Assembly: GCA_027061945.1 (NCBI GenBank)
Contig: JAMOVR010000065.1
Location: forward strand, 1-57,087
Length of the DNA stretch: 57,087 nucleotides
Direction of reading: 5' to 3'
DNA from: Candidatus Heimdallarchaeota archaeon
GTDB taxonomy: Archaea > Asgardarchaeota > Heimdallarchaeia > Heimdallarchaeales > JAJRWK01
Shown in pieces: positions 6,726 to 32,752 of the stretch (within the stretch, counting starts at the first letter, position 1; each line of letters opens with the position of its first letter). The translations under genes were made by a program, and so were the position numbers. The notes below the pieces were generated by a model. It was given only the letters and a program-made list of their open reading frames with translations, was not told the origin of the DNA and made no database searches.

Positions 6726-6889
6726 ATTTAAACCCTTTTTGGGGGGAGAGAGGGAGAGTGAGTAAAGTGAAAGTATTGTTTTAGACATCCCTTTTTTCAC
6801 GCCTTAAATCTTTTTGAAAATCGGGATATACTTTTAGGACTAACATGATAAAAACGTTAAATACCGAATAGTTCCGAAAATAATATAGG

Positions 6890-7309
6890 ATGTTTAATTT
6901 CGATGCTTACTGGGATCCAATTGATCTAGAAGAATTGATGAGGACTGTCCAGCACGCCCTCAAAAAGAAGATTGATGACGAAAAGCATCATCAAAATATA
7001 TATGATGACACCTACAGAGCGGAGGGAGAAAAAGACAATATCGTCTTCTCCTCAAACAGTGTATTCATACCAAAAAACGAGATAGATCCGGACCCTAACA
7101 TTATTGATCATATACTGGATATGTTAGAAGATGCCCTAAATAATGACGATATGTTTCTTGACCCTCTTTTTGACGAAGATCTTGAGTTTGAACCGATAAA
7201 AACTACCCATATCTTCTATAAAGGAAAATTACTTACCTGCGATGTGATTGATGAGGCTTACTGCTTATATCCATATGAACAATGGAGCGACCTGGAATTT
7301 ATAAATTAA
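6890..7309 (+). CDS. hypothetical acidic protein
   Basis: 139-aa ORF, D/E-rich, non-repetitive, in its own intergenic slot. No family recognised. Confidence 0.45.
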   Translation: MFNFDAYWDPIDLEELMRTVQHALKKKIDDEKHHQNIYDDTYRAEGEKDNIVFSSNSVFIPKNEIDPDPNIIDHILDMLEDALNNDDMFLDPLFDEDLEFEPIKTTHIFYKGKLLTCDVIDEAYCLYPYEQWSDLEFIN

Positions 7310-7448
7310 ATATTATCTTGCCCCTCTCAATCACTCATTCCAGAGTCGCTCCATAAATATTTTAACATTATAGGGGATAATTCCTCTTCTTTTTAGAAAG
7401 GTGATGTGGGAGATGAAAACCAATAAAGTTAAATTAAGCAGTCTAGTT

Positions 7449-9167
7449 CTATTTTTCTTCTTCAAAATCACGAATCATCGTTATTATTGTATTTTCCGGT
7501 AAAACAAGTTCTTCACTATTTCCAGTCCATTGTGTGGTTATCTCTGCTGGTATATAATACTGAATAATTGATAAAAGGTTTCTAGCAAATTCTCTTATAT
7601 CTTTTTCAAAAGCATGCCCTTCTACTATTAAGATAAATGGATCTGAAACTGCCAAAACAAACATTTTTCCACCGGTTGGAATCACAATTTCTTTTGGTCC
7701 TTCCCCACTAGCTTCTTCAATAATTCCCGCAATAGCGCTTAATGCACCAGAAAGCAACTCTTCATAGCCGCTATATGTTCTTTTGTCTAATTTTTTATCC
7801 CAGATTATTCTCCCATCGTTTAGTACTATAGTTATCGAGTTTATTTTCTTTCTTTTAATAAGCATAAATTGCGAACTAATGCAATTTATTTTTAACAAGT
7901 TATTATACGGTCTCAAACATTCATTTATTTGTGTAAGAAAGCTCGTGGATTTTCCAGCTAGTTGAAACATAGATTTAATTACCTTTAAACTGGTTTTTAA
8001 TCTTGAAATGATTCTTTTTTGTTTCTCAGTTTCCAGTTTACCTACGTATTGTAAAACAGTCAGTACTAAATTATAAACGTTAAATACTGTATTTTTGTTT
8101 TCTTCGGGGTCAAAAACATTATTGCTTACCATGAATTCTGTTGCATCAATATAACCGAGAAGTAACTTCTCTAATAGCGTAGAAACAATTGAAGAAAACA
8201 CTTTCATTTTTGGAGGTCTAAAGTTTTCTGCTAAAACAATATATCTTATTGTCAAGTCTATTTTTTTCATTCTATAATATGTTTTAGCTAAACCAAACAT
8301 TGAAACAAAATTCAAAAAAGGGACTCTGTGTTTTTCTTGTAATGACAAAAAATGATTAAATTCATTAATTGCTTTAACTGGTTCGACTAATTCTTCATAA
8401 TAAAGCCCGAGTAATACTCTTGAATCGGGCACTTCTTTGATTATTTTTAATGTTTCTATGTTTTCTTCGAACTTATTTTTCATCCCGTATAAGTATTCTA
8501 TAAAAATTTTTAGCACTAATAAATAGTCTTTTAGCTCTTGGTCAACAGTAGAGTTAATCAATAAATCAATAAATTCGTGGGCTAAATCTAGTCTTTTTTC
8601 TATTGAAAGCGTTCTTATTACCTCATAAACACGCGTAAATAATTCATTAGGGATTTCCCAATTTCTAGAAATTATCCGATTAAGAGTTTCATGTGGATGT
8701 AAAATAATCTCTTTTTCTTCTAAGATCTCCTCATCACTTAAAATTGTAGGCGGGATACTAAGAACGGAGTATTTCTTAAAAGAAAATAAGACTCTGTTTT
8801 TCAAGAACTTCTCAACTAGAGATTCTTCTTTATTAACACCAATGATTTTTTTAAAATCAATTAATACTGCACGGATTCTTTCTTTGGGTAAAATAATCAC
8901 TCTAAAATATTCATTTTCATCTTCCCTCTCAAAAAAACAGATTGCATGTTTCCCATCATAAGAAAACATTACGTGTTTTGTTGTTGAAGAAAAAATATTC
9001 TTTAACCCAACAACTTTATTATAAATTATTTCTGCCCCTCTTGAGTTTACCTCCCCCCATAATACTTTGAAATTAAATTCCGAGTATCCTATTTTTTCGT
9101 TGTCCTCTTTTTTTGATTTTGAAAAAAGGAGTAATTCCTTAAACGAGTTAAAATCCATAAAATCCAT
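7449..9167 (-). CDS. hypothetical large protein with a C-terminal Roadblock/LC7(MglB)-like domain
   Basis: 572-aa ORF. The last ~110 aa (ITIVLNDGRIIWDKKL...LLSGALSAIAGIIEEASGEGPKEIVIPTGGKMFVLAVSDPFILIVEGH) follow the Roadblock pattern. The middle is helical-repeat-like. The domain call is by eye. Confidence 0.6.
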   Translation of the reverse strand: MDFMDFNSFKELLLFSKSKKEDNEKIGYSEFNFKVLWGEVNSRGAEIIYNKVVGLKNIFSSTTKHVMFSYDGKHAICFFEREDENEYFRVIILPKERIRAVLIDFKKIIGVNKEESLVEKFLKNRVLFSFKKYSVLSIPPTILSDEEILEEKEIILHPHETLNRIISRNWEIPNELFTRVYEVIRTLSIEKRLDLAHEFIDLLINSTVDQELKDYLLVLKIFIEYLYGMKNKFEENIETLKIIKEVPDSRVLLGLYYEELVEPVKAINEFNHFLSLQEKHRVPFLNFVSMFGLAKTYYRMKKIDLTIRYIVLAENFRPPKMKVFSSIVSTLLEKLLLGYIDATEFMVSNNVFDPEENKNTVFNVYNLVLTVLQYVGKLETEKQKRIISRLKTSLKVIKSMFQLAGKSTSFLTQINECLRPYNNLLKINCISSQFMLIKRKKINSITIVLNDGRIIWDKKLDKRTYSGYEELLSGALSAIAGIIEEASGEGPKEIVIPTGGKMFVLAVSDPFILIVEGHAFEKDIREFARNLLSIIQYYIPAEITTQWTGNSEELVLPENTIITMIRDFEEEK

Positions 9168-15173: not shown

Positions 15174-15220
15174 ATGAATTACTTTTCTTTTTCGCAAGAG
15201 CATGAACAAGGGGCGTTTTT
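15174..15220 (-). repeat. IS200/IS605 right-end tail fragment (same variant as 11836-11882)
   Basis: The reverse complement 'aaaaacgccccttgttcatgctcttgcgaaaaagaaaagtaattcat' matches 11836-11882 apart from a few substitutions. It overlaps the stop codon of the ABC ATPase gene. Confidence 0.55.
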
Positions 15221-16319
15221 ATCTTATTCTTCTTTCTTCTAAAAAGCAAAGAACCTTTTCAGGATTAACTTGAACAAATGCTTCTACGTCTACACCCATG
15301 CGAGAAGTCTCTTCGATATGTTTTCTTTCTGCTATGATCAGTCTTTCTTCAGTTGGAAGTTCTAAATTAACTCTTACATGATCTCCCATAAAACTATTTG
15401 TACGTATTATTCCTTTTAGGATGTTTTCTTCGTTGTCTGCGCGTTTTTTGTTTGGTATTACATTAACATCTTGTGGGCGTATAAGTATTTTCAATTCAGC
15501 CCCTGGTTCTAGCTGTTCCTCAAAATATGCGGTTATTAATCCCGCATCACCAATTCTTATTTTTGCTTTATTTCCTTCCTGTTCTTCTAACACTCCTTTC
15601 AATGTTGAGGATTCTCCAATAAATTCCCCAACAAATAAGTTATCTGGATCGTGAAATACTTCAAGAGGTGGACCAACTTGTTGCAGTTCTCCATCTCTCA
15701 ATATTGCAATGCGATCGGAAATTGCAAGTGCTTCTGACTGGTCATGAGTAACATAGATTACAGTAATCCCTAGTCTTTTTGAGATTTCACGGATCTCTGT
15801 CCTTAATTCTACTCTTAGTTTTGCATCCAAATTGCTTAAAGGTTCGTCACATAATAATACGTCAGGATCTACAGCTAATGCTCGGGCAAGAGCAATTCTT
15901 TGTTGTTGTCCACCACTTATTTGTGTGGGCATTTTACCGATTTGGGACTCCATTTTAACTAGTTTTAGCATTTCAACTGCTTTTTTCCGACGAACTTCTT
16001 TTGGGACTCCCTTGAGCTTTAGGCCATACTCTACATTTTGTTCTATGGTCATATGTGGCCATAAGGCATAGTTCTGGAAGATCATGGCTGTCCCGCGGTG
16101 TTGTGGGGGTAAATGAGTAATTTCTTTTCCTTCTAAAAAGATGTGTCCTGAAACAGGTGTAACAAATCCTGCGATGGAACGTAGTAACGTTGTTTTACCG
16201 CAGCCGGAGGGTCCTAGTATTGTTACCAATTCTCCAGGCTTCACATGCAAAGAAACACCTTCTACTGCGGTAAAGTCATCATACTTTATAGTAATGTTTT
16301 CAATACGTACGCCTTCCAT
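15219..16319 (-). CDS. ABC importer ATP-binding protein (PotA/FbpC/MalK-like, with C-terminal regulatory domain)
   Basis: 366 aa. Walker A GPSGCGKTT, Q-loop FQNYALWPH, signature ISGGQQQR, Walker B VLLCDEPLSNLD, H-loop VTHDQ. Confidence 0.92.
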   Translation of the reverse strand: MEGVRIENITIKYDDFTAVEGVSLHVKPGELVTILGPSGCGKTTLLRSIAGFVTPVSGHIFLEGKEITHLPPQHRGTAMIFQNYALWPHMTIEQNVEYGLKLKGVPKEVRRKKAVEMLKLVKMESQIGKMPTQISGGQQQRIALARALAVDPDVLLCDEPLSNLDAKLRVELRTEIREISKRLGITVIYVTHDQSEALAISDRIAILRDGELQQVGPPLEVFHDPDNLFVGEFIGESSTLKGVLEEQEGNKAKIRIGDAGLITAYFEEQLEPGAELKILIRPQDVNVIPNKKRADNEENILKGIIRTNSFMGDHVRVNLELPTEERLIIAERKHIEETSRMGVDVEAFVQVNPEKVLCFLEERRIR

Positions 16320-16354
16320 TCTTCTCTACTCCATTCCTTATACATTAGTGTTTT

Positions 16355-18304
16355 TTAGATTCCGGTAATCGCCTCAGCACGGTTCTTTAGCAAGAAGTTC
16401 GTAGCAAACAAGCTTATTGCCTGGATTATCATTAAGAAAACACCGATAGCACAGAGACGACCGATCTCTCCAGTGTTATGCGCCATGTCCCAAGTAAGAG
16501 TTCCCTTGTTTCTGTCAAGAACAAGGATCAAAGTAGTACTGACTTCTCCCATTGAATATACTAATGAGATTAATGCACCACCAATTATGTTAAACGAGAT
16601 CAGTGGAGTGACAATCTCAAGTAATGAACGGTACCTACTTGCTCCGAGGTTCATGGCAGCTTCTTCCAATACTTCATCTGTTTGCTGGAGACCTGCATAT
16701 ACTGCTCTTACCGTGAATGGAAATCTTCTAACGGTATAACTTATCATCAAGATGAGAACAGGGTTTAATGGGTTTAAAGTAAGCCAGTCTATCCCAAATA
16801 GGCTTCCTGAATTACTAAACATTTTCCAGTAGCCCATCCCTAAAACAATCCCTGGGATTGCTATAGGAATTGTTAATAAAGCATCAAACCATGACTGCCC
16901 TGGGAATTTCTTTCTATTTGCAACATATCCTGCTATAGTTGCTAAAATGATTGTGATGAATGTAGCCCCAAAACTATACATTAAAGTATTTTTTAGTGGT
17001 ATCCAAAGTCCTTCTGCCCCAGTATTAAAGAAATTCTTATAGTTGTCAAATGTTAATTGTGGATTTTGGGCATTTGGAACTAAAGATCGGTAAATAATAC
17101 CAAATTGAATTAATGTTGCTATCAAGAATACTGCCATCAGGAAAGCAATTATTCCGATACTTGCAAGCACTCCTACTTTTCTTTCTCTAGTGTTTCCAGC
17201 TCGGCCTTTACTAATCATTGAATATTGACGTAATGCGACATATTTCCTTATGAAAAAGAACCCTACAATCGCGAATAATAGCAGTACAGCTCCTAAAAAT
17301 GTTGCTTGTGGATTTATCCTTGCATCGGCTTCACCAGCTATGATTGTGTTATAAATTTCGTAAGTTATTACTTTTGTTGCAGCGTTGTCTCCTGTTGCTC
17401 CATAAAGCACAATTGGTGTGCCTAAGTCTTCCATTGCCAGGATCAAGACTAATATACTACCAGAAGCTATACCTGGCATTGCTAAAGGAAAAGTAACTGT
17501 TCTGAAAAGCCGGAAACCACTTGCACCTAAGTTCTCGGCTTGTTCTTCTAACGAAGGATCAATGTTAAGCAAAGAGGAATAAACATTCAAATAAATTAAG
17601 GTGAAAAAGTGAAGAGTCTGCACAAAAACGATTCCAGCTATTCCTTGAAAAATGATAACAAGACCAAGATATTTGGAAAAAACATATTGATTAAGAAGTC
17701 CTTGTGGTCCAATCATGACAGAAAAACCGATACCTCCTACAAAGGGAGGCACTATTAATGGAAGCAACATTAATCCTTGAAAAATCACTTTTCCGGGAAA
17801 TTTATACCTAGCCATTATAAACGCAATACTTGTTCCTATTATTAGTGAAAATAATGTTGTCAGTATTCCTACAATGATTGTGTTTAAGATAATTCCATAG
17901 TCCTTGAATTTGATATATACATAAGTAACTGTTTGTCCGGTCAATGGATATTTTTGTTGGCTTTCTATACGAATCATATAATCTAACGGCGCTCCACCTG
18001 GTTGGATGAAACGACGACTACTTAGCACGTTTTTCATAGTCTCGAGAGTAAAACTACCATTAATATCGAATGTTGGGAATATGTATATCCAACGGACATG
18101 GACTGCAAAGTTCTCTGTAGTAAACGCAGTAATAATGATAATTATTAATGGTACTACTAAGAAGTACACAAAAAACGCAGTTATTGATAAAATGAAAAAC
18201 CAGCTTAATGGGTCTTTTTTGAGTTCTCTAAATATTTTATTGAAGAAATCTGAAATCGAAGATTTAGTGGTGTTAAGTATTGGAACAGCCGCCATTAAAT
18301 ACAC
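16355..18304 (-). CDS. ABC importer permease, duplicated (two-module) transmembrane protein (FbpB/ThiP-like)
   Basis: 649 aa with about 12 TM helices and two EAA-like loops (EEQAENLGASGFRLFRTVTFP and EEAAMNLGASRYRSLLEIVTP). Confidence 0.9.
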   Translation of the reverse strand: MYLMAAVPILNTTKSSISDFFNKIFRELKKDPLSWFFILSITAFFVYFLVVPLIIIIITAFTTENFAVHVRWIYIFPTFDINGSFTLETMKNVLSSRRFIQPGGAPLDYMIRIESQQKYPLTGQTVTYVYIKFKDYGIILNTIIVGILTTLFSLIIGTSIAFIMARYKFPGKVIFQGLMLLPLIVPPFVGGIGFSVMIGPQGLLNQYVFSKYLGLVIIFQGIAGIVFVQTLHFFTLIYLNVYSSLLNIDPSLEEQAENLGASGFRLFRTVTFPLAMPGIASGSILVLILAMEDLGTPIVLYGATGDNAATKVITYEIYNTIIAGEADARINPQATFLGAVLLLFAIVGFFFIRKYVALRQYSMISKGRAGNTRERKVGVLASIGIIAFLMAVFLIATLIQFGIIYRSLVPNAQNPQLTFDNYKNFFNTGAEGLWIPLKNTLMYSFGATFITIILATIAGYVANRKKFPGQSWFDALLTIPIAIPGIVLGMGYWKMFSNSGSLFGIDWLTLNPLNPVLILMISYTVRRFPFTVRAVYAGLQQTDEVLEEAAMNLGASRYRSLLEIVTPLISFNIIGGALISLVYSMGEVSTTLILVLDRNKGTLTWDMAHNTGEIGRLCAIGVFLMIIQAISLFATNFLLKNRAEAITGI

Positions 18305-18501
18305 CCTTCTTAGGGTAAATCAAATATTGCCTTGATAAGTATTACTTTGGTGGTTCTTTATTAAGGCTATCACTGTAAAAATATTTTATCTATTTATATG
18401 TTTCATGTTTTTACCGTTTCTATCTTTTAAAATCCGGAAAAACAAGGAGTTGAAAGAAAAAAAGGAGGGAAAAAATGATTAATTTAAATTGTTATTTTCT
18501 C

Positions 18502-20037
18502 CTAATTTTTGATTTTTCTTCTCATCATTACGGGGATAGCAATTATTGCTAAGAAATAGAATGCTTGTGTAATGGTAAATCCAGGCACTTCTTTAACAGT
18601 GGGATTAATTACTCCTAATTCTTCTAATTGGGATGTTATATTTTGCAATAAATTAAGTTTGAAATCTTCCCATTCTGACTGTTTTTCGTTTCGGTAGTTC
18701 AAGTCTTCAATGATTTTCGTGTTTATTTGTTTTGCTTCATCTTCTGTTATTGCTGGTGTTGCATATATCTTTAGTAAATTATTAAATTGCTCGTCATTTA
18801 ATTGTTTATTCTGGTACCCTGATACCATGTTTTTCCATACCGTTCTTAATTGTTGGTGCACACGAGTAATTGTTGCCTGGAAGTGGTATCTCATTGCTTC
18901 TTCCAAGCTCAAAGCACGGTCCTCGTTGAAAGTAATACTTTCAGTGTGTAATGCCTTAATATACACCTCTTGGAGGTCTTCTCTTTGTTGTCCGATAGTG
19001 GTATTAAAGGCATCTGCTCTTATGGGGAGACGATTGATCTCAGGATCAAGCCATAGTGCTTGTCCTTCTTGGCTAAAAATGAATTTTAAGAACGCATTAG
19101 CTGCGTCTGGATGTGCTGGATTTAATGCTAATGCAACAGGATCTCCATTTACAATACTTGCATTCTTAGGAATAACATATTCACAATCAGGGTTTTCCAT
19201 TTGAGCTTTGAACCCATAGAAATCGATAGTCATTGCGGCTGCAACTGTTCCGTCAATGACTTGTTGTCTTGTTGAGACAGATCCATCAAAAATTGCACCA
19301 TTTCCAGCCATTCTATAAAGGATTTCCCAACCTTTTTCCCATCCATACTTTTGTAGTATGATTTGGTATATCCTTGTATTACTAGTAGTTTGTGGTGCAT
19401 CACCCATAGCAACTGTTGGTTGTTCGCTTCTGAAAAAGTCCAATGAAGCTAAGTCTTCCCATGTTTCTGGTGTTGGTAATCCTAATGTGTCTATTACTTT
19501 TTTATTAATTGTAAAACCAAATGAAGAAATTGCATTAGCAACCCATAATAACTGGCCTTGATCATTATAGTATTTCATACTTGCGCCAGAAATAGTGTCG
19601 TTTACTACTGTATTGAGAATGTTTAGTAAGTCGGTATCATTTATTGGTCCAATAGCAGGCCCTGCAGGATCAATCGCTAATGAAGTGAATAAAGTTGGGC
19701 CGCCACCCCAGGCAATGTCTGCACCAACTCTAGGGTTAACCATTGTAGAATAAAAAATTGAGTATGACGTAGGGTTAAATACCTGGATTTCATCTGCTGA
19801 AGTTATGCCGACAGTTTGAGCGTACTGTGAATGAATAAAAGCATCAATGAATTTTTCATAAATAATTCTTTCATGCCTGGTCACTATTACCAGTTTTACC
19901 TCATGTAACGATGGATCTCCTAAATCTAGTTTTGGTGTTGCTACCATTACTAGTGACCCTTGTGCAGGGTTAACAATAAGAACTAAGAGAAAAGCCGTAA
20001 CCAAAGGCACAAATAGTGCTTTTTTATTTGGTCTCAT
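18502..20037 (-). CDS. extracellular solute-binding protein of the ABC importer, with PGF-CTERM-like anchor
   Basis: 511 aa. Has an N-terminal signal/TM (ALFVPLVTAFLLVLIV), a family-1 SBP-like body, and the C-terminal tail VPGFTITQAFYFLAIIAIPVMMRRKIKN. It is the first gene of the importer operon. Confidence 0.85.
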   Translation of the reverse strand: MRPNKKALFVPLVTAFLLVLIVNPAQGSLVMVATPKLDLGDPSLHEVKLVIVTRHERIIYEKFIDAFIHSQYAQTVGITSADEIQVFNPTSYSIFYSTMVNPRVGADIAWGGGPTLFTSLAIDPAGPAIGPINDTDLLNILNTVVNDTISGASMKYYNDQGQLLWVANAISSFGFTINKKVIDTLGLPTPETWEDLASLDFFRSEQPTVAMGDAPQTTSNTRIYQIILQKYGWEKGWEILYRMAGNGAIFDGSVSTRQQVIDGTVAAAMTIDFYGFKAQMENPDCEYVIPKNASIVNGDPVALALNPAHPDAANAFLKFIFSQEGQALWLDPEINRLPIRADAFNTTIGQQREDLQEVYIKALHTESITFNEDRALSLEEAMRYHFQATITRVHQQLRTVWKNMVSGYQNKQLNDEQFNNLLKIYATPAITEDEAKQINTKIIEDLNYRNEKQSEWEDFKLNLLQNITSQLEELGVINPTVKEVPGFTITQAFYFLAIIAIPVMMRRKIKN

Positions 20038-20283
20038 GTTTCCACCTTAAAAGTTTTTTACTATTTTCAAGCGTTACTTACATTTGTGGTATCATAAAGA
20101 TTATGTTTTTATTCCCATAAAAAGTAAGCACTAATACACGAAATAGCTTTTTCAAAATACTTACAATGGGTTGTTCTAAAAAAAAAGGACGAGAATTATT
20201 AGAAAACTTTTATTCGAGAATCCAAGTCAATTAATAGGTACTCTACACTTTACTTACTGCTAAGTGCTAATAGGTGATATACA

Positions 20284-20865
20284 ATGTCGTTTTTGTCTAA
20301 ATTACTACTAAAAAAACGGGAACAAGTAAAGGATGCATACGTAACCATAATTGGTCCTCCAAAGGCGGGAAAAACAACTCTTGTCAGGTATTTAGAAACT
20401 GGAAAACCAGTAGAAGAAGAGCTAAGCACGACCTTAGGAATTGAAGTACGGAAAACGGGTGTTCAAATTGACCAATGGAGACTTCGAGCTATTGACACGG
20501 GTGGTCAAAAGATATATCAACAGACCTTCTGGGAATTAGCGGTACAACAAGCAGATGTTGTTATTTTTTTAATTGATGCCACAATAAAGCCAGACACCAA
20601 TCCTGAGTTGTATGAATTAACTAAAGAACAGTTTAGTTATGCGCTTGATATAATCCCTGAAGACGTGCCTTTACTGGTATTAATAAATAAACAAGACTTG
20701 AAAGAGAAGAATCCAATGAACGTTGATGAGGCATTGCAGATCCTTGATTTTGGTTCAATACCAAATCGTTCCATGGCTTTCTATCCGTGCTCTGCAAAAT
20801 ATGGTACCGGCGTGGAGGAAGCTATAAACTGGATTGTTACTCAGTTAGATTCTCAAAAAAGGTGA
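20284..20865 (+). CDS. Ras-superfamily small GTPase, Arf/Sar-like
   Basis: 193 aa. G1 GPPKAGKTT, switch-I T in STTLGIE, G3 DTGGQ, G4 NKQD, G5 CSAKYG. Has an N-terminal amphipathic stretch MSFLSKLLLKK, as in Arf/Arl. An SD-like aggtgat lies upstream. Confidence 0.9.
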   Translation: MSFLSKLLLKKREQVKDAYVTIIGPPKAGKTTLVRYLETGKPVEEELSTTLGIEVRKTGVQIDQWRLRAIDTGGQKIYQQTFWELAVQQADVVIFLIDATIKPDTNPELYELTKEQFSYALDIIPEDVPLLVLINKQDLKEKNPMNVDEALQILDFGSIPNRSMAFYPCSAKYGTGVEEAINWIVTQLDSQKR

Positions 20866-20869
20866 TCCA

Positions 20870-21790
20870 ATGGAGAAAAATAAGACTTTGGAAGTAAATA
20901 TTAAGCCCTTTATAAAGAGAGGGTATGAAAAAATAACGGTCTCTTTAGTTCTTAGGGATACTTCTGAGGGACTGTTATATTTCGAAGAAGGAGGTATTAT
21001 TAACCTTCCTAATGAATATGATTCCTTCTTCCCATTTGGGAATCCACCCCCATTTTTCGCCGGTATGGGTATAAAAAACAAGAAGGTCTATGTCTCCATT
21101 TTCGTAGCAAAAAATATCTCTTTTAACTTAATGATGGAAACAATTCTTGATAAAGACTTTGTAAACCCTCTACTATTTCTTAAATCATTAAAAAAAGAGG
21201 CCGAAAAAATTCTTGAGATTATAAACTCTGAAAATCCTGATCAAATAAACATTGACTTTAAAATAAGAGATGTAAGAGGCAAGGTAACCCTGCCCAAGCT
21301 TGAAGGTTTAGATTCTGTTTTTTATTCTGTTATGTCCAGATCCCCGGTAATGGTAATCGGAGAGGAAGAAAAACTTATTGAATTTTTAGGTAAAATAATC
21401 TATGCATTACCAGACAAAATCCAAAAAAGAACAAGTTTCAAGATAAATCTTGAATACGAAGGAAATGAAAACATTTCTCTTTTTGCGGCAAATCCTAAAT
21501 ATCTTGAATCTTTTAGTTTATTGCTTAATAATGAAGAGCAAATAATTGACATAGTAGATCTCCGCCATAACAAAATATATTCCAATTATGAAGTCAAAGC
21601 ATTACAAACAATCCTTGAAAAAACAAATTTCGACGCAGAATCAGTAAAAGCTTTCTTAACAGATGTATATAAAATGTCTCTTAAAGTTTCTGAAGAATGT
21701 GATCCTAATAAAATTGGAGACTACTACAATATTGATTATGACTTGGCTGATCTCGTAAAAGACACTAGTAATGCTCTTAAACAGATTTAA
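20870..21790 (+). CDS. hypothetical protein co-transcribed with the GTPase (possible Roadblock/longin-like N-terminus)
   Basis: 306 aa. The ATG lies 4 nt after the GTPase stop, and the SD-like ggtgatcc overlaps that stop. The N-terminal ~100 aa (ITVSLVLRDTSEGLLYFEEGG...VYVSIFVAKNISF) resembles a regulatory alpha/beta domain. No firm family call. Confidence 0.7.
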   Translation: MEKNKTLEVNIKPFIKRGYEKITVSLVLRDTSEGLLYFEEGGIINLPNEYDSFFPFGNPPPFFAGMGIKNKKVYVSIFVAKNISFNLMMETILDKDFVNPLLFLKSLKKEAEKILEIINSENPDQINIDFKIRDVRGKVTLPKLEGLDSVFYSVMSRSPVMVIGEEEKLIEFLGKIIYALPDKIQKRTSFKINLEYEGNENISLFAANPKYLESFSLLLNNEEQIIDIVDLRHNKIYSNYEVKALQTILEKTNFDAESVKAFLTDVYKMSLKVSEECDPNKIGDYYNIDYDLADLVKDTSNALKQI

Positions 21791-21808
21791 AAAAAGGTGA
21801 TTAAAAAA

Positions 21809-22636
21809 ATGGTTTTTGAAATATTTGCAGGAACAAACATAGTTCTTATTAGTATTGCTTTTTTGGTACTTGCACTAATTGGTTTCTTTATTATTATATT
21901 CCAATTATGGACTGAAGGAGCTAGTAATGCCTTAGTTAAAAATCTCACATATGGTGCGATAGTTATCTCATTTGGTTATGTTTTAAGCATCACAAATATT
22001 ATCTTAGGAGAACTATATTGGTTAGGTATTACTCATCAATCTAATTTCTACCTTATGCTCTCTCTAAGCTTTTACTATGCAGGATGGTTCTTAGGTCTCC
22101 GATTACTCCTAAAAAAGACTTTCCGCTTGCCAGAAGAAAGAAAACGCAGATACAGTATCTTCATGAATGTGATGATTGGTTTAGTTTTACTGATGCTTGT
22201 ATTCACATTTACAACAAGAACATTAGTAAATAAAATGGGTGAAAATAACCCTATTGTAATTGGACTTTTCATTACCCAAGGGGTGTTGGGATTAATAGTA
22301 TTTATTGTTTTTAAAGAGATGATTAAAGCTGAAATCAATAAAACAGCTTCAAAATTAACAAAAGCTAGATTCTATGTTTTGCATCAGGTAATTATCGTTC
22401 AATTAGTCACATTTGGAGTAATTATTATTGGTGATATCTTAGAATTAATCTTTATAGAACAATTATTGATTTATGAAGTTTTTACCATTGTTATTCTTTC
22501 GCTTTTATCTCTATTGACAGTATGGATGCTTCACGGAATTGTCTATGTCCCTGAAGGAGTTAAAGAACGCTTTGGTATTATGCAAACAAGATTTGAAACA
22601 ATAAAACAAATTGTAACAGAAGAAGATAACGACTAA
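21809..22636 (+). CDS. seven-TM membrane protein, third gene of the GTPase operon
   Basis: Seven hydrophobic segments of ~20-24 aa by eye, with a short acidic cytoplasmic tail. An SD-like aaggtga at 21794-21800 sits 8 nt before the ATG at 21809. The track start, GTG 21797, lies inside that SD. Confidence 0.75.
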   Translation: MVFEIFAGTNIVLISIAFLVLALIGFFIIIFQLWTEGASNALVKNLTYGAIVISFGYVLSITNIILGELYWLGITHQSNFYLMLSLSFYYAGWFLGLRLLLKKTFRLPEERKRRYSIFMNVMIGLVLLMLVFTFTTRTLVNKMGENNPIVIGLFITQGVLGLIVFIVFKEMIKAEINKTASKLTKARFYVLHQVIIVQLVTFGVIIIGDILELIFIEQLLIYEVFTIVILSLLSLLTVWMLHGIVYVPEGVKERFGIMQTRFETIKQIVTEEDND

Positions 22637-22727: not shown

Positions 22728-24596
22728 TTAATATCCAATATACTCCTTCGCAATTTCTCTAAGTTCTATCATGGATAATACATGAAAAACTCTTATTTTT
22801 TTAATGATATTACTTGGGAATGCGGAAATTGGTAAATAAAGTAAAACATGCCCATATTTTTTAGCTAGTTGTCGCGCAAATAAGCTAGGTCTTTCAAGAC
22901 TTATAACGCCAATATACTTTGAGTTTTTTGGTGTTGACCATATAGCTGCGATAATAAGCCGGTCTAAAAACGAATATGTAAAGTCCCTAGGAATTTCTGC
23001 GACTAACCAATAGGGAGGAAACACAGAGATGAGTCCTGCATATTTTGCTCTCCCAATTCCTGGTCCTACTAACAAGTCCGCAGGATTACTCGATACTAAC
23101 GACAAATTACTCTCTTGTTCATGTTCTGCATACCATGTCATTACTTGTTCATATGGTCGATCATCTTTGGTAAATTGTAAAACTATAGTATTTATCTTTG
23201 GTGCGTTTTTAGGAATTTTTTTGACAAATATTTTACCTTCATGGATATGCCTAGTAGTCTCTCTCCAGTCAATGCCATCCATTATTGAAGTAGTAAAAGG
23301 CTCAACAATTACTTGTTCTTCTAAAATCATGTTTTGAAATTTTTTCCTTACTCTTCGCATGAATTTTTCAAAAAATAAGTCCTCTGGAGGATAAGAAAAA
23401 GCACCATTCCCTTTATTCCAAACTTCTCTCCATTCTCCGGGATATTTTTCTGAGGGTGGTGCTTTTATTAAGTCCCAGATCTGTCTATTTTTAGGATTAA
23501 ATGAAAGTACTGGACGAGGATGTCTCTGTTTCAAAGTAATAGATAAATGACTTTTTGGATCTAGGAGATTACCGAAATCAACTATTGGCAAACCTGAGAG
23601 TTTTGATAAGTCCTCTGGATAAAACGGATATTTTACTGTAGCACGATATACTTCTAAAGCATAATCATCATCGACGCCTCCTTTAGCACCTTCCACAATG
23701 TTAAATAATGAAGGAAAGATCCTTCCATCAATAATTGCAAGATTCCTCATATATTGAATCATTTTTTTAAAAGTAGAAAGGCTGATTTCTTCATCAAATT
23801 TTTTTTGATATTCCAATTTGGCTTCTTTTAATAAATCAACTAAAGCATCATCGTGTCTGAATCTGTTCTTATCAAGCCAAAATCGGGCTACAAAGAAAGG
23901 AAGATCAATTATTAGGCGAGGATAAGAGAATGGATGTAGTAATGCTAACTTCCAGTCTATCTCTTCGTTATCTGTTAATGACATCTGTTCTTTTGTCTTA
24001 TTATTTTTATCAAATGATTTTTTTATCGCTGGAACATGCCATAAACCACCTACCCATACAATTTTACTGTTTTTATTGTCTCTACTTTTACTTAGAATTT
24101 TTTTCCCCATCATTTTTCCCCTCACGTCTTCGATCCCCATTTCTTCAATTGTTTGAATAAGAGGTAAAAAACCAGTATATGTTATTATTAATGGATCTGG
24201 AACTGAGACTTGGGGTCCATCTTTTGTAGTTGGAAGGCTATCAACATTTAATATAGATTTTCTTTTTTTTACAGCCCACCAGATAGCTATGCTATTGGCA
24301 TCCCCTGGGTGTATTAAATAAAAATCTAAAGGAACAGGTTCATCTAACCCTGGAATTTTAGTCATAGATTCTGGATTGTACATTATGACTGGTAATGGAA
24401 ACAAATCAATAGCTTCTTCAAGTTTTTTCTCAGAACCAATTGGGTATTCTACGGCTACGATGTGTGGATTTATTTTATTAATTGTCTCTAAAGTTATCTC
24501 CGTACTAACTAAGGAATGATGTATAGCTGGGATTAAATACACATTAGAATCTGCTTTTACAAACCATGGTTGAGGCGTGTCTTTCCAATATACCAT
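22728..24596 (-). CDS. large hypothetical protein with an N-terminal TraB/GumN-like domain
   Basis: 622 aa. VYLIPAIHHSLVSTEITLETINKINPHIVAVEYP and later IVWVGGLWHVPAI resemble the two conserved blocks of the TraB/GumN/ChaN family (GTAHvs...PD.VavE ... vG..Hl.G). The remaining ~400 aa are unassigned. Confidence 0.65.
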   Translation of the reverse strand: MVYWKDTPQPWFVKADSNVYLIPAIHHSLVSTEITLETINKINPHIVAVEYPIGSEKKLEEAIDLFPLPVIMYNPESMTKIPGLDEPVPLDFYLIHPGDANSIAIWWAVKKRKSILNVDSLPTTKDGPQVSVPDPLIITYTGFLPLIQTIEEMGIEDVRGKMMGKKILSKSRDNKNSKIVWVGGLWHVPAIKKSFDKNNKTKEQMSLTDNEEIDWKLALLHPFSYPRLIIDLPFFVARFWLDKNRFRHDDALVDLLKEAKLEYQKKFDEEISLSTFKKMIQYMRNLAIIDGRIFPSLFNIVEGAKGGVDDDYALEVYRATVKYPFYPEDLSKLSGLPIVDFGNLLDPKSHLSITLKQRHPRPVLSFNPKNRQIWDLIKAPPSEKYPGEWREVWNKGNGAFSYPPEDLFFEKFMRRVRKKFQNMILEEQVIVEPFTTSIMDGIDWRETTRHIHEGKIFVKKIPKNAPKINTIVLQFTKDDRPYEQVMTWYAEHEQESNLSLVSSNPADLLVGPGIGRAKYAGLISVFPPYWLVAEIPRDFTYSFLDRLIIAAIWSTPKNSKYIGVISLERPSLFARQLAKKYGHVLLYLPISAFPSNIIKKIRVFHVLSMIELREIAKEYIGY

Positions 24597-25022: not shown

Positions 25023-25595
25023 GTGTGGGTAATTGACCGTCTTTTCAAGAAATCATCCTCCAAAAAAGCTAAAATCTGTTTTATTGGCCCTTCCGAGGCC
25101 GGAAAGACTACTCTATTAAGATTTCTCGAGACTGGAGAACCAGTACTTGAAGAAATTCATACTACTATTGGAATTAATCTCCGAAAAAAAGCCATAAAAA
25201 TGGGTCCTTGGGAGATAAATATTATTGATACCGGGGGTCAGAAAGTATATCAACAAGTTTTCTGGGAATTGGCAGTACAACAGTCTGATGCAGTTGTTTT
25301 TGTAATCGATGCCACCATTAAACCCGACACTGAACCAGAAAAATTCGCAATGGTAAAGGAACAAGTAAACTATGCTTTAGATATTATAACTGAAGAACAA
25401 CCGTTGTTGTTCCTACTAAACAAACAAGACTTAAAAGAAAAGAATCCAATGAGTGTTGATGAAGCATTTGAAAAACTCGGGATTTCATATCCGAATTCAG
25501 AAATAGTTAATGCTATGGAAATAAGTGCAAAGTATGGTGACGGGGTAGAAGAAGCGATGTTATGGTTAGTAAGTGCAATTGAAAAGTCTAAATAA
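25023..25595 (+). CDS. Ras-superfamily small GTPase, Arf/Sar-like (paralog of 20284..20865)
   Basis: 190 aa, GTG start. G1 GPSEAGKTT, DTGGQ, NKQD, ISAKYG. Long runs are identical to the first GTPase (IDTGGQK, FWELAVQQ, IDATIKPDT, NKQDLKEKNPM). Confidence 0.88.
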   Translation: MWVIDRLFKKSSSKKAKICFIGPSEAGKTTLLRFLETGEPVLEEIHTTIGINLRKKAIKMGPWEINIIDTGGQKVYQQVFWELAVQQSDAVVFVIDATIKPDTEPEKFAMVKEQVNYALDIITEEQPLLFLLNKQDLKEKNPMSVDEAFEKLGISYPNSEIVNAMEISAKYGDGVEEAMLWLVSAIEKSK

Positions 25596-25707: not shown

Positions 25708-26055
25708 TTAAAGTTCAGAAAAAGCAGTCTCAAGTTTTCTCACAGTAATTGGTTTCAAGATATATGCTTGTGCTTGGATTTCGTTTTTTGTTCCAATGGG
25801 GAGCTCATCATTTGTAATCATTATGATCTTGATTGTTGATTTAATTGACCTAATCTTCTTTGCCACTTCAGCTCCATTTATGTCTGGCATCACAAAGTCA
25901 AGAGTGACGACGTCTGGTTCTAGTTGTTCTACCTTTTTAATTGCTTCTTCACCATTATATGCTACTCCCACAACATCGTGGCCGATTCTCTGGATCATGT
26001 TTTGTAATGCAGCCACTGACAAGCGACTGTCATCTACAATTAGTACCTTGCTCAT
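25708..26055 (-). CDS. single-domain response regulator (CheY-like receiver)
   Basis: 115 aa. Has VLIVDDS, the phospho-acceptor context VVTLDFVMPDINGAEV, and a conserved Lys in YILKP. Confidence 0.9.
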   Translation of the reverse strand: MSKVLIVDDSRLSVAALQNMIQRIGHDVVGVAYNGEEAIKKVEQLEPDVVTLDFVMPDINGAEVAKKIRSIKSTIKIIMITNDELPIGTKNEIQAQAYILKPITVRKLETAFSEL

Positions 26056-29044: not shown

Positions 29045-29860
29045 ATGGAAAAAACCGTTATTAGTGGTGTAGAATTAGAGTTATCCCCTTCAACCGAATT
29101 TCCTGCGAGATGGTTAGGTCAAGAAATAGTAAAAAGGGAACTACTTGCAGCCTGGTTAATAATAGATAAAGAAGATATTCCATTAAACCCCCGATTAGTT
29201 GGGCCACCAGGGATTGGCAAGACAACGCTTGCTTACGCGGTAGCTAAAGAATTAGGAAAAGAAGTCTGGTTTTATCAAGCTACTATGGACACAAGGCCTG
29301 AAGACTTAATTGTAACCCCTGTAATTGAAGAGGGGAATAAAATCAAATATGTAGCCTCTCCAATAGTTACCGCAATGATCAAAGGTGGTGTTGTAATTAT
29401 TGATGAGGGTAACAGAATGAGCGAAAAGGCTTGGGCATCATTAGCTCCCTTACTTGATCATAGAAGATACGTAGAATCTCAGATCGCAGGCATAACTATT
29501 AAGGCACATCCTGAATTTAGACTCGCAGTAACGATGAATGAAGATACAAGTACATATGATGTCCCCGAATTTATTCTCTCCAGATTAAGACCTGTTATCG
29601 AACTTACATTCCCATCAGAAGACGAAGAAAGAGAGATTTTAAGATATCACGTCCCAATTGCTCCTGAAAAACTAATTGATGCTGTTGTTAAATTCCTACA
29701 AAAGGCACATCAAAACGAGTATCCCTATACCGTGAGGGGTGGTATCCAGATTTTAAGGTATTGTTTAAAGCTTTCAAAACTAAAAGGGACAGATCCTTTG
29801 TTAGAATTTCCTCAAGCAGTGCTTTCCGTTCTTGGAGATGAAGCATATCGCCTTCTTTAA
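29045..29860 (+). CDS. AAA+ ATPase, MoxR/CbbQ/NorQ/GvpN-like
   Basis: 271 aa. Walker A GPPGIGKTT, Walker B VVIIDEGNR, sensor region LAVTMNE. Length and order are as in the AAA_5/CbbQ group. Confidence 0.88.
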   Translation: MEKTVISGVELELSPSTEFPARWLGQEIVKRELLAAWLIIDKEDIPLNPRLVGPPGIGKTTLAYAVAKELGKEVWFYQATMDTRPEDLIVTPVIEEGNKIKYVASPIVTAMIKGGVVIIDEGNRMSEKAWASLAPLLDHRRYVESQIAGITIKAHPEFRLAVTMNEDTSTYDVPEFILSRLRPVIELTFPSEDEEREILRYHVPIAPEKLIDAVVKFLQKAHQNEYPYTVRGGIQILRYCLKLSKLKGTDPLLEFPQAVLSVLGDEAYRLL

Positions 29861-30313: not shown

Positions 30314-30727
30314 ATGTCAACTGAAAAAGACGACTATCTCGAGTTATTCATTCAAGAACTAGAAGAACAACTACAGGAATTGAGAAACTCAATAGAACAA
30401 TTCGAAAAAATAAACCATGACAGTAACCCATACGAAGTATTCTTCAGAGTAACTCATACTTTAAAAGGAAATGCCGGGTTCATGGGCTTTGAAGACTTAG
30501 CTGAAGTCTCAAGAATCGTCTGCGAAGTATATCGTGGTCTTACTCCAGAAGAAGCGAAAGAGATCAATGTTGATCCATTTTCAAAAAGATTCTACGTTTT
30601 ACTTAGTGCGTACAAAGGAATTATTGAGAAAAAGCACTCCACTTCTGCTTTAGTTCCTGACAGCATCATATCTGAAGCCCAAAAGCTCCTCAATAAAAGA
30701 GAACAAATAAAACACAAACAAGAATAA
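30314..30727 (+). CDS. stand-alone histidine phosphotransfer (HPt) domain protein
   Basis: 137 aa. FRVTHTLKGNAGFMGFEDLAEV matches the HPt signature (aHtLKGsa...G) with the phosphorylatable His. Confidence 0.85.
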   Translation: MSTEKDDYLELFIQELEEQLQELRNSIEQFEKINHDSNPYEVFFRVTHTLKGNAGFMGFEDLAEVSRIVCEVYRGLTPEEAKEINVDPFSKRFYVLLSAYKGIIEKKHSTSALVPDSIISEAQKLLNKREQIKHKQE

Positions 30728-31729: not shown

Positions 31730-32752
31730 ATGAATCTTTTGCCTTCTAACAGAGAGATACTGGTTTTTGGAAGACAACGCGTAATTATCGGTTCTAGCGA
31801 AAGAATGGAGGAAATACCCGATAATTCTATAGACGTTATTGTTACTAGTCCTCCTTATAACGTAGGTAAAAAATATACTCCTGACGGGAGCTTCACGGAC
31901 AAGCTCCCAATGGACGAATACTTATTATTTCTCAAAAACGTGTTCAGAGAATGCTTAAGGGTCTTAAAACCAGATGGCTTATTTTTTCTAAATATCGGGG
32001 ATTCTGCAAAGGATCAAGGGAAAAGTGAGAAAGTTGTTAATACTGCTGTCCATGCAGGGTTTAAACGAGTTCAGACAATTATTTGGGTTAAAAGCATTTT
32101 TGGGATGGGTCATTACACTCCTTCTGGAGGGAAAAGACGGTTTAATAATGTTTGGGAAAATGTTTTCTTATTATCAAAAACGAAGAATTACCGTCTTGAC
32201 CCCAAAAGAATTGGGATTCCTTATACGGACAAGTCAAACATCGGAAGATATTCAAAAGAGGACTTAAGGGATCCTGGTGATGTCTGGTTTGTTCCTTATG
32301 AAGTAACTACCGGTGCAAAAATAAAGAAAGGCCATGAAGCTCCGTTTCCTATTGGCCTCCCTTATTTATGCATAAAAAGCGTTCCTGACGCAAAAACAGT
32401 CCTTGATCCTTTTGCAGGAACAGGTAGTACATTGGCAGCCTCGGAATATTTAGGCCTTGAAGGAATAGGATACGAATTATTCCCAAAAAAAGAGGTAATA
32501 AGGAAACGGATCTTAGAAAATTCATTCAAGCCTCCCAATACCCCATTACCACGCCAACTGGAGAAATACGTGTCAATAGTGGATGAAATCCTTTATAACG
32601 CTTTACAATTTCTTTCTGAAGAACAAAAAAGGCGCATAATGTCTAAACTGTCTAAGAAAAAGAAAAAAACATTAACCACAAGTATGAAAGATTTAAAACA
32701 TTTTCCTGAATGGTTAGAAAAAATGTCTCAATTATTAGAAGATTATTATTAA
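31730..32752 (+). CDS. DNA methyltransferase, beta class (N4-cytosine or N6-adenine), no cognate nuclease nearby
   Basis: 340 aa. Motif IV VTSPPYNVGKKY lies near the N-terminus and motif I LDPFAGTGSTLAA near residue 226, the beta-class order. Has a Lys-rich C-terminal extension of ~90 aa. Confidence 0.88.
   Translation: MNLLPSNREILVFGRQRVIIGSSERMEEIPDNSIDVIVTSPPYNVGKKYTPDGSFTDKLPMDEYLLFLKNVFRECLRVLKPDGLFFLNIGDSAKDQGKSEKVVNTAVHAGFKRVQTIIWVKSIFGMGHYTPSGGKRRFNNVWENVFLLSKTKNYRLDPKRIGIPYTDKSNIGRYSKEDLRDPGDVWFVPYEVTTGAKIKKGHEAPFPIGLPYLCIKSVPDAKTVLDPFAGTGSTLAASEYLGLEGIGYELFPKKEVIRKRILENSFKPPNTPLPRQLEKYVSIVDEILYNALQFLSEEQKRRIMSKLSKKKKKTLTTSMKDLKHFPEWLEKMSQLLEDYY

Follow-up and report, generated by a model that had tools for sequence, protein, structure and literature searches.

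Do three closely packed genes on one strand of an archaeal contig, encoding a small GTPase, a protein of no named family and a polytopic membrane protein, belong to a single molecular system, and what might that system do? The genes, here termed g1, g2 and g3, lie on contig JAMOVR010000065.1 of Candidatus Heimdallarchaeota archaeon (GenBank assembly GCA_027061945.1), the whole 57,087 nucleotides (nt) of which were analysed and are referred to below as the window. A preliminary description, made from the sequence alone, had suggested that a membrane receptor or platform, a regulatory subunit and a small GTPase are encoded as one unit, a prokaryotic analogue of receptor-coupled or Rag/Ragulator-type signalling. 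Our analysis makes it reasonably probable that the three genes constitute one co-translated module building a membrane-associated small-GTPase switch with its own DENN regulator. The linkage, the regulator fold and the seven membrane helices of the earlier proposal thus stood, while the match of the membrane protein to receptors proved weak; moreover, with an Asgard archaeon as host, kinship to eukaryotic GTPase-DENN systems describes the module better than mere analogy does. The assignment of the host to the Heimdall group is firm, and those close g1 homologs with a named source come nearly always from Heimdallarchaeota or Hodarchaeota, two being labelled 'Promethearchaeota'.

Open reading frame (ORF) coordinates confirmed the compact arrangement on the plus strand: g1 (20284-20865, 193 amino acids, aa) encodes the Arf-like small GTPase, g2 (20870-21790, 306 aa) the DENN-module protein and g3 (21809-22636, 275 aa from its ATG) a membrane protein with seven transmembrane (TM) helices, separated by gaps of 4 nt (20866-20869) and 18 nt (21791-21808). 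GGTGA is the core of the archaeal Shine-Dalgarno (SD) sequence. The preliminary description had seen this motif before the two downstream genes, and we found that it precedes all three ATG codons: 6 nt before that of g1 (20273-20277, +), 4 nt before that of g2, where it runs across the TGA stop of g1 as a putative coupling signal (20861-20865, +), and 8 nt before that of g3 (21796-21800, +). As GGTGA occurs at 0.56 per kb per strand in the window and an SD-like motif lies within 20 nt of the start in just 7 of its 37 long ORFs, its presence at three out of three triad starts is far beyond chance. The pattern fits coupled translation of a single transcript. An alternative GTG start of g3 (21797-22636, +, 279 aa) is itself part of the SD motif, and in the public gene call the ATG is used, giving 275 aa; hence 21809 was taken as the start and is likely the true one.

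Strong evidence that the three genes belong together comes from related genomes. Loci, numbered here with the prefix L, were found as neighbourhoods of GTPase homologs from the GTPase alignment and scanned with hidden Markov models (HMMs) of the three families. About 20 assemblies of Heimdallarchaeota type contain the g1, g2 and g3 families together, arranged in at least five gene orders and with short or overlapping intergenic gaps throughout. The order g1-g2-g3 is found in the window, L001, L002/L003, L004, L005, L006 and L010; L009 is truncated by the contig end. The order 7TM-g2-g1-X, where X is a fourth gene treated below, occurs in L011, L013, L015, L024 and L025 and partially in L016, while L012 carries g2-7TM-g1-X, L023 and L029 carry X-g1-g2, and in L008 g3 is divergent from g1. 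Furthermore, a Heimdallarchaeota protein of 497 aa (P0088, NHJ05581.1), annotated merely as 'GTP-binding protein', is a natural fusion of the GTPase with the DENN protein (L021/L022 5001-6494; L030/L031 4501-5994), and a g3-family gene overlaps the end of the fusion gene in L021, L022, L030 and L031. Because the fusion is present on four independent contigs, an assembly artefact could be ruled out. The pairwise-identity matrices of the families correlate (r = 0.87 for g1/g2, 0.83 for g1/g3 and 0.93 for g2/g3), with mean identities of 53% for g1, 23% for g2 and 21% for g3, the GTPase evolving far more slowly than its neighbours. The survey of related genomes called for by the preliminary description therefore revealed a triad conserved through changes of order and through fusion. 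Linkage that survives rearrangement, together with the fusion, is strong evidence that the three families are functionally associated, and the association is probably also physical. The genome of L001, which carries a full triad, additionally holds a paralogous unit at 5035-7758 with an Arf-like GTPase distant from g1 (36% identity), a g3-family 7-TM protein, a protein of the Y family described below and an 86-aa ORF; no DENN gene was found in this unit. At L019 4501-4990 (Candidatus Heimdallarchaeum aukensis, CP084166.1), tblastn matched GTPase residues 1-164 at 44% identity and the ORF scan found no intact GTPase ORF, which could be explained by a pseudogene, a frameshift or a split gene.

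The product of g1 is, judged by its G boxes, a catalytically intact Arf-like GTPase. Its best Pfam family was Arf (PF00025, 2.2e-21, 76.5 bits against a curated cut-off of 22.3), with Ras at 50 bits and faint G-alpha matches to the switch region. The closest PDB sequences were Arl3 and the Asgard ArfR structures 8oun, 8oul, 8oum and 8ouk, all top matches being Arl, Arf or ArfR. Homologs carry names such as Heimdallarchaeota or Hodarchaeota Arf-like proteins, and part of them also have precomputed Gtr1_RagA matches. The five G boxes reported earlier could be traced on the plus strand, namely G1 GPPKAGKT (aa 24-31, nt 20353-20376), the switch-I threonines T49/T50, G3 DTGGQ (aa 71-75, nt 20494-20508), G4 NKQD (aa 135-138, nt 20686-20697) and G5 SAK (aa 170-172, nt 20791-20799), and all are invariant among 16 homologs. 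Arf-specific marks are a G1 box of the form GLDxxGK[ST], with Leu-Asp at positions 2-3, and a G3 box DxGG (Zhu et al., PMC11914678). The protein has the latter, with Gly at position 3 of DTGGQ, but the 'GLD' of the former is missing from its GPPKAGKT and from the family consensus GPSKAGKT; by these marks g1 is Arf-like rather than a strict Arf. Its N-terminus MSFLSKLLLKK (SFLSKLLLKK, nt 20287-20316, +) had been likened to the amphipathic membrane-inserting helix of Arf, Arl and Sar proteins. The segment is indeed conserved in the family (consensus MSLLSKLF.R.K) and aligns with SFLQRLFRQKK, the N-terminal helix of the crystallised Asgard ArfR 8oun, whereas its amphipathicity is unremarkable in the window copy, with a hydrophobic moment of 0.20 (rank 134 of 183 11-mers) compared with 0.3-0.8 in homologs. 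A second, stand-alone Arf-like GTPase of 190 aa, 59% identical to g1, is encoded at 25023-25595 (+), 2.4 kb downstream of the triad and past a convergent gene for a 622-aa protein; its longest ORF has a GTG start and lacks an SD-like motif. In L005 and L006 a solitary GTPase paralog likewise lies near the triad, with one opposite-strand gene between.

The middle gene, g2, turned out to encode a cryptic DENN module. No family was found for it in Pfam, NCBIfam or PADLOC and no sequence or profile match in the PDB, and a word-indexed protein search returned the window's own protein only. Among 1.8 billion proteins, exhaustive HMMER searching recovered 22 family representatives (E <= 1e-3); those public copies that were looked up are all annotated 'hypothetical protein'. 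The Pfam DENN, uDENN, dDENN and Folliculin profiles miss the family, the sole trace being a sub-threshold Folliculin_C match (0.13) in 1 of 16 members. In contrast, an AlphaFold2 model built from a 16-sequence alignment was confident (predicted local distance difference test, pLDDT, 91.4; predicted template modelling score, pTM, 0.90) and showed a sheet of longin type accompanied by helices, an alpha/beta core and a C-terminal part made of helices. The model places a longin/uDENN lobe at about aa 1-121, a core DENN domain at about aa 125-240 and dDENN helices at about aa 243-306 (all +). Foldseek against the PDB gave as best matches guanine nucleotide exchange factor (GEF) domains, those of DENND1B (3tw8_C, E 7e-7) and DENND1A, at E 7e-7 to 1e-5 and a query-normalised TM-score (TMq) of 0.50-0.53, followed in order by DENND10, by chains of C9orf72-SMCR8-WDR41 including the ARF1-bound 7mge, and by folliculin-FNIP2 and GATOR1 chains. 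The Foldseek probability was 1.00 for DENND1B, DENND1A, DENND10 and one C9orf72-SMCR8-WDR41 chain. With a confident fold and such matches, g2 is by its model a full longin-DENN-dDENN module invisible to sequence profiles. The earlier guess of a longin/roadblock-type N-terminus thus proved right and extends to the whole protein, and the structure check proposed with it uncovered a GTPase-regulator fold. In eukaryotes the longin-DENN-dDENN fold occurs in Rab GEFs (DENND1) and in longin-type complexes of GTPase-activating proteins (GAPs) such as folliculin-FNIP and C9orf72-SMCR8.

Conservation within the g2 family is concentrated at a few positions. Arg29 (nt 20954-20956, +), at the end of longin strand beta1 in the beta1-beta2 loop, occurs without exception in the 11 triad-linked proteins despite their mean identity of 23%. 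Nearly invariant in the same set are P55, G57 and P59 of the P-x-G-x-P loop after helix alpha1, part of the motif PFGNPP (nt 21032-21049, +). G164 and P181 are conserved in the DENN core, whose motif LDS..YS....P.MVIG..(15)..LP spans nt 21308-21412 (+).

For g3, hydropathy revealed seven hydrophobic segments, and the AlphaFold2 model, which rests on 14 sequences recovered from related loci, showed seven long helices and two short C-terminal ones (pLDDT 82.4, pTM 0.77), in agreement with the helix count given earlier. Across the 14 homologs the mean number of Lys and Arg residues per loop alternates 0.4/3.5/0.9/4.6/0.9/4.6/0.6/5.9, which places the N-terminus outside and the C-terminus inside; g3 is therefore a predicted seven-helix membrane protein of N-out/C-in topology. 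The conserved motifs of the family alignment all lie on the cytoplasmic side, namely RLPEERKRR after TM3 (nt 22124-22150, +; family form RLPExRK), NKTASKLTKAR before TM6 (nt 22337-22369, +; family form KxASKLxKAR, R187 invariant) and VPEGVKERFGIMQTRF after TM7 (nt 22547-22594, +; family form IPxxIRxRFGxxPxRF, P248 invariant), and the outer loops are short and variable. The acidic tail seen earlier is present (TEEDND) but is particular to the window copy and no trait of the family. Like g2, g3 has no Pfam, NCBIfam or PADLOC family, a word-indexed search returned the window's own protein only, and the public copies looked up are annotated 'hypothetical protein'. Among 14 family members no 7tm_1, 7tm_2, 7tm_3 or other family was matched at E <= 10, and a PDB profile search yielded only a chance bacteriorhodopsin match (E 3.3). 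A recognisable transporter with a helix count other than seven, which would have spoken against the earlier proposal, was not found; with Pfam, NCBIfam and PADLOC all empty, neither a defence-system nor a transporter reading of g2 and g3 is supported.

A fourth gene is present in many related loci. One type, X (about 350-370 aa), joins the module in L004 (10460-11572), L010 (6914-8005), L011 (5092-6141), L012 (2628-3680), L013 (5051-6139) and L016 (1797-2846), and also in L024, L025, L023 and L029. The N-terminus of its product has the conserved motif NYYS..L...G.L.GPLP.AYH and its C-terminal half a weak Arf/Arl/Sar match (Arf1 3lrp, E 8.5e-4) without a recognisable P-loop; X may unite a longin-like domain with an Arf-like pseudo-GTPase. 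Gene Y (about 250-275 aa) is an alternative fourth gene and follows g3 in the clade nearest the window (L002 10351-11091; L005 8619-9446; L006 5349-5738; L001 6690-7484; L018 5043-5873). Invariant N-terminal C..KC and H..H residues in Y suggest a metal site; Y has no Pfam or PDB match. HMMs of the X and Y families found no copy of either in the window, and hhalign detected no relationship of X or Y to the g2 family.

How might the three products work together? In the mechanism that we propose, g3 would serve as a membrane platform and possibly as a sensor, its cytoplasmic loops (RLPExRK, KxASKLxKAR and IPxxIRxRFGxxPxRF) docking the DENN protein and/or the GTPase. The g2 protein would set the nucleotide state of g1, and GTP-bound g1 would engage the membrane via its short basic-hydrophobic N-terminal helix, and effectors in addition. 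Arf-type GTPases need a catalytic arginine supplied in trans. This need and the invariance of Arg29 at 23% mean identity lead us to favour, tentatively, a GAP-like action of g2. Judging from the order of secondary-structure elements and longin topology, Arg29 and PxGxP would share the end of the longin sheet at which the beta1-beta2, alpha1-beta3 and beta4-beta5 loops come together. In FLCN, NPRL2 and SMCR8, the arginine finger and the GP motif are situated on the longin-sheet end that faces the nucleotide of the GTPase (PMC12290439).

Several points weigh against the proposed module and its GAP. The GP motif of longin GAPs is defined as standing immediately before strand beta2 (PMC12290439); no such motif is conserved there in g2, the P-x-G-x-P following helix alpha1 instead, and the positions of both Arg29 and PxGxP differ from the canonical arrangement. 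Structurally, g2 comes closest to the DENND1 GEFs (TMq about 0.5), with lower scores for the GAP complexes (TMq 0.25-0.35). In addition, known longin GAPs are heterodimers of two longin-DENN subunits and the window has one g2-family gene. Interaction and activity of the three proteins are putative; an action of g2 on a cognate small GTPase has the indirect support of operon linkage and the natural GTPase-DENN fusion, and the putative catalytic end with Arg29 and PxGxP is deduced from secondary-structure order, not coordinates. Moreover, since many related loci carry X or Y, which are missing from the window, the module there may be incomplete or its partner encoded elsewhere.

The main alternative, which we consider possible though less probable than a GAP, is that g2 acts as a DENND1-type GEF, docked on the 7-TM protein and loading g1 with GTP, with hydrolysis being intrinsic or due to another protein. 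The conserved DENN-core residues G164 and P181 and the rank of the Rab35 GEF domains of DENND1B and DENND1A at the top of the structural matches are in line with this, and a GEF role was proposed by Liu et al. for another Asgard DENN operon (10.1101/2020.10.19.343400). However, the strictest conservation in g2 (R29 and PxGxP) falls in the longin lobe, and an invariant arginine is more typical of a GAP finger. In the DENND1B-Rab35 structure the longin lobe reportedly makes no contact with the Rab. Eukaryotic single-chain DENN proteins are typically GEFs; against this stands, once more, the dependence of Arf-type GTPases on a trans-acting GAP. That g2 is a non-catalytic adaptor appears rather doubtful.

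Alternatively, the 7-TM protein might act downstream of the switch: the GTPase-DENN pair would control the localisation, insertion or activity of g3, itself a cargo, a channel, a transporter or a factor for membrane remodelling. Such an arrangement, which we regard as unlikely, would resemble Arf/Arl-dependent sorting or the pairing of SR-beta, which is Arf-like, with the SRX domain of SR-alpha, which has a longin fold. It explains the linkage and the conserved cytoplasmic loops equally well, a longin-like N-terminus and a degenerate Arf-like domain seem to be joined in gene X, and eukaryotic Arf and Arl proteins act mainly on membrane traffic (10.1101/2024.02.28.582541). Nevertheless, no transporter or channel family matches g3, no conserved polar residues stand out within its helices in the alignment, and both the one-to-one pairing and the tight coupling of the genes would be left unexplained.

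Less probable still is that the 7-TM protein is a true receptor that activates the GTPase, as in G-protein-coupled receptor (GPCR)/G-alpha or SLC38A9/RagA signalling, with the DENN protein as GAP off-switch completing a full receptor/G-protein/GAP cycle. The topology of g3 is that of a GPCR, its conserved motifs are placed where TM3, TM5/6 and TM7 end on the cytoplasmic side, and a short helix follows TM7. The 50 top Foldseek matches of g3 all fell in GPCR classes A, B and C; microbial rhodopsins were not among them. In addition, the GTPase-7TM pairing persists without an adjacent DENN gene in the L001 paralogous unit and in L008, and faint Pfam G-alpha matches occur in the switch region of g1. 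However, the structural matches are weak, with a best E of 5e-3, none reaching 1e-3, TMq of 0.40-0.58 and root mean square deviations of 6-9 A, and GPCRs are very heavily represented in the PDB. Searches at the sequence level connected g3 to no GPCR family, the class motifs E/DRY, NPxxY and CWxP were not seen in the g3 alignment, its short extracellular loops show neither conservation nor an obvious ligand site, and the model derives from just 14 sequences. The GPCR-like nature of g3 is accordingly to be taken as an open lead suggested by the model rather than as a finding. Finally, that the adjacency is fortuitous or the ORFs are no real genes, as the failure of g2 and g3 to match any sequence family could suggest, is extremely improbable and refuted by the conservation data, given homologs under purifying selection and always linked to the GTPase in about 20 assemblies, the GTPase-DENN fusion, high-confidence folds for g2 and g3 and an SD motif at each gene.

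The surroundings of the module are those of an ordinary chromosome. The GC content of the window is 34% and flat (about 33-35%, no compositional break), and the neighbours encode ABC transporters, an amidohydrolase, an enoyl-CoA hydratase, UvrA, a CLC channel, MFS transporters and citrate synthase; an origin of the triad in a mobile element or island was rejected on these grounds. Directly upstream, on the opposite strand, lies an ABC importer operon (15219-20037, -) with genes for a solute-binding protein (18502-20037, -), a fused double permease (16355-18304, -) and an ATPase with a TOBE domain (15219-16319, -). The 622-aa ORF convergent with g3 (22728-24596, -) gave a sub-threshold DUF5682 match (6.5e-4) and no NCBIfam or PADLOC match. 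Less than 10 kb downstream of the triad are genes for a single-domain response-regulator receiver protein (25708-26055, -; Pfam Response_reg 1.4e-23) and an Hpt-domain protein (30314-30727, +; 4e-11), both of which are phosphorelay parts, and no kinase was seen nearby. An AAA_5 (dynein-related/MoxR-McrB-like) ATPase gene (29045-29860, +) near that of an N6/N4 DNA methylase (31730-32752, +) may mark a restriction-modification or defence patch.

Asgard archaea encode dozens of eukaryote-like small GTPases and many longin, Roadblock and DENN proteins. Matching regulators to GTPases among them is an open problem, hindered by the fact that Asgard GTPase genes generally lie outside operons with such regulators (Tran et al., PMC10933270). 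The triad supplies a ready-made pair of an Arf-like GTPase and a DENN-fold protein, backed by a natural fusion, together with a dedicated membrane partner, and all three proteins are small and amenable to biochemical and structural tests. Furthermore, the cryptic nature of g2 implies that sequence profiles under-count DENN-fold proteins in Asgard genomes. If the 7-TM protein turns out to act upstream as a receptor, the module would be relevant to how receptor-coupled G-protein signalling arose; a complete receptor/G-protein/GAP circuit would make it a candidate forerunner of receptor-coupled G-protein or Rag/lysosome-type signalling in the closest relatives of eukaryotes.

In the literature searched, whose coverage was incomplete, we found nothing relevant on an Asgard 7-TM/GPCR link or on an earlier description of the triad. 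Compared with the GPCR/G-alpha/RGS system, the triad likewise combines a seven-helix N-out/C-in protein, whose conserved elements are likewise cytoplasmic, with a GTPase of the Arf/G-alpha branch and a candidate GAP. In contrast to that system, however, the fold match is weak (E >= 5e-3), g3 is devoid of GPCR sequence motifs, g1 has no helical insertion, beta and gamma subunits are missing and the regulator is a DENN protein, not RGS. With the Asgard ArfR/AArf proteins (10.1101/2024.02.28.582541; PMC11914678), g1 shares the host clade Heimdallarchaeia, Arf as best Pfam family and the G3 box DxGGQ, and with ArfR 8oun also the N-terminal SFL..L..KK segment; its G1 box is GPPKAGKT, whereas the Arf-specific form is GLDxxGK[ST]. 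In the main texts of these two reports, the first in its preprint form, a search by terms turned up no reference to gene neighbourhoods, operons or transmembrane partners.

The best structural match of g2, DENND1A/B acting on Rab35 (3tw8, 6ekk), has the same longin-DENN-dDENN architecture in one chain of similar size. Sequence identity is 9-10%, the cognate GTPase is Arf-like where theirs is a Rab, conservation in g2 is concentrated in the longin lobe, and the gene stands in an operon with those for the GTPase and a membrane protein. An Asgard operon of a LAMTOR1-like Roadblock protein, a Rab-like GTPase and a DENN protein, the last proposed as regulator, was described by Liu et al. (10.1101/2020.10.19.343400). 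It is also Asgard and also places a small GTPase gene beside a DENN gene, but the triad has an Arf-like instead of a Rab-like GTPase, a 7-TM protein instead of a Roadblock/LAMTOR1-like one, and a DENN protein recognised by neither the Pfam DENN nor the folliculin profiles. The triad belongs to a known Asgard GTPase-DENN theme, within which the Arf-like GTPase, the cryptic DENN protein and the dedicated 7-TM partner set it apart.

Finally, C9orf72-SMCR8-WDR41 on ARF1 (7mge), folliculin-FNIP and GATOR1 differ from the triad in several respects: g2 is one chain of 306 aa to which the window adds no second longin-DENN subunit, the arginine and Gly-Pro motif of g2 stand elsewhere in the sequence than the canonical arginine finger and GP motif, there is no sequence-level homology, and the triad partner is a 7-TM protein where theirs is WDR41 or Ragulator. 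Nevertheless, the pairing is the same, a longin and DENN protein with an Arf- or Rag-type GTPase, and g2 matches chains of 7mge, 6lt0, 6nzd, 8dhb and 6ces and likewise has a conserved arginine in the longin lobe. These complexes also act at the lysosome membrane beside polytopic membrane proteins, a further likeness to the triad. The C9orf72-SMCR8 longin-DENN complex is an Arf GAP, and for Heimdallarchaeial longins of the FLCN/SMCR8 type a 2025 survey raised ArfR or Rag GTPases as possible partners (PMC12290439).

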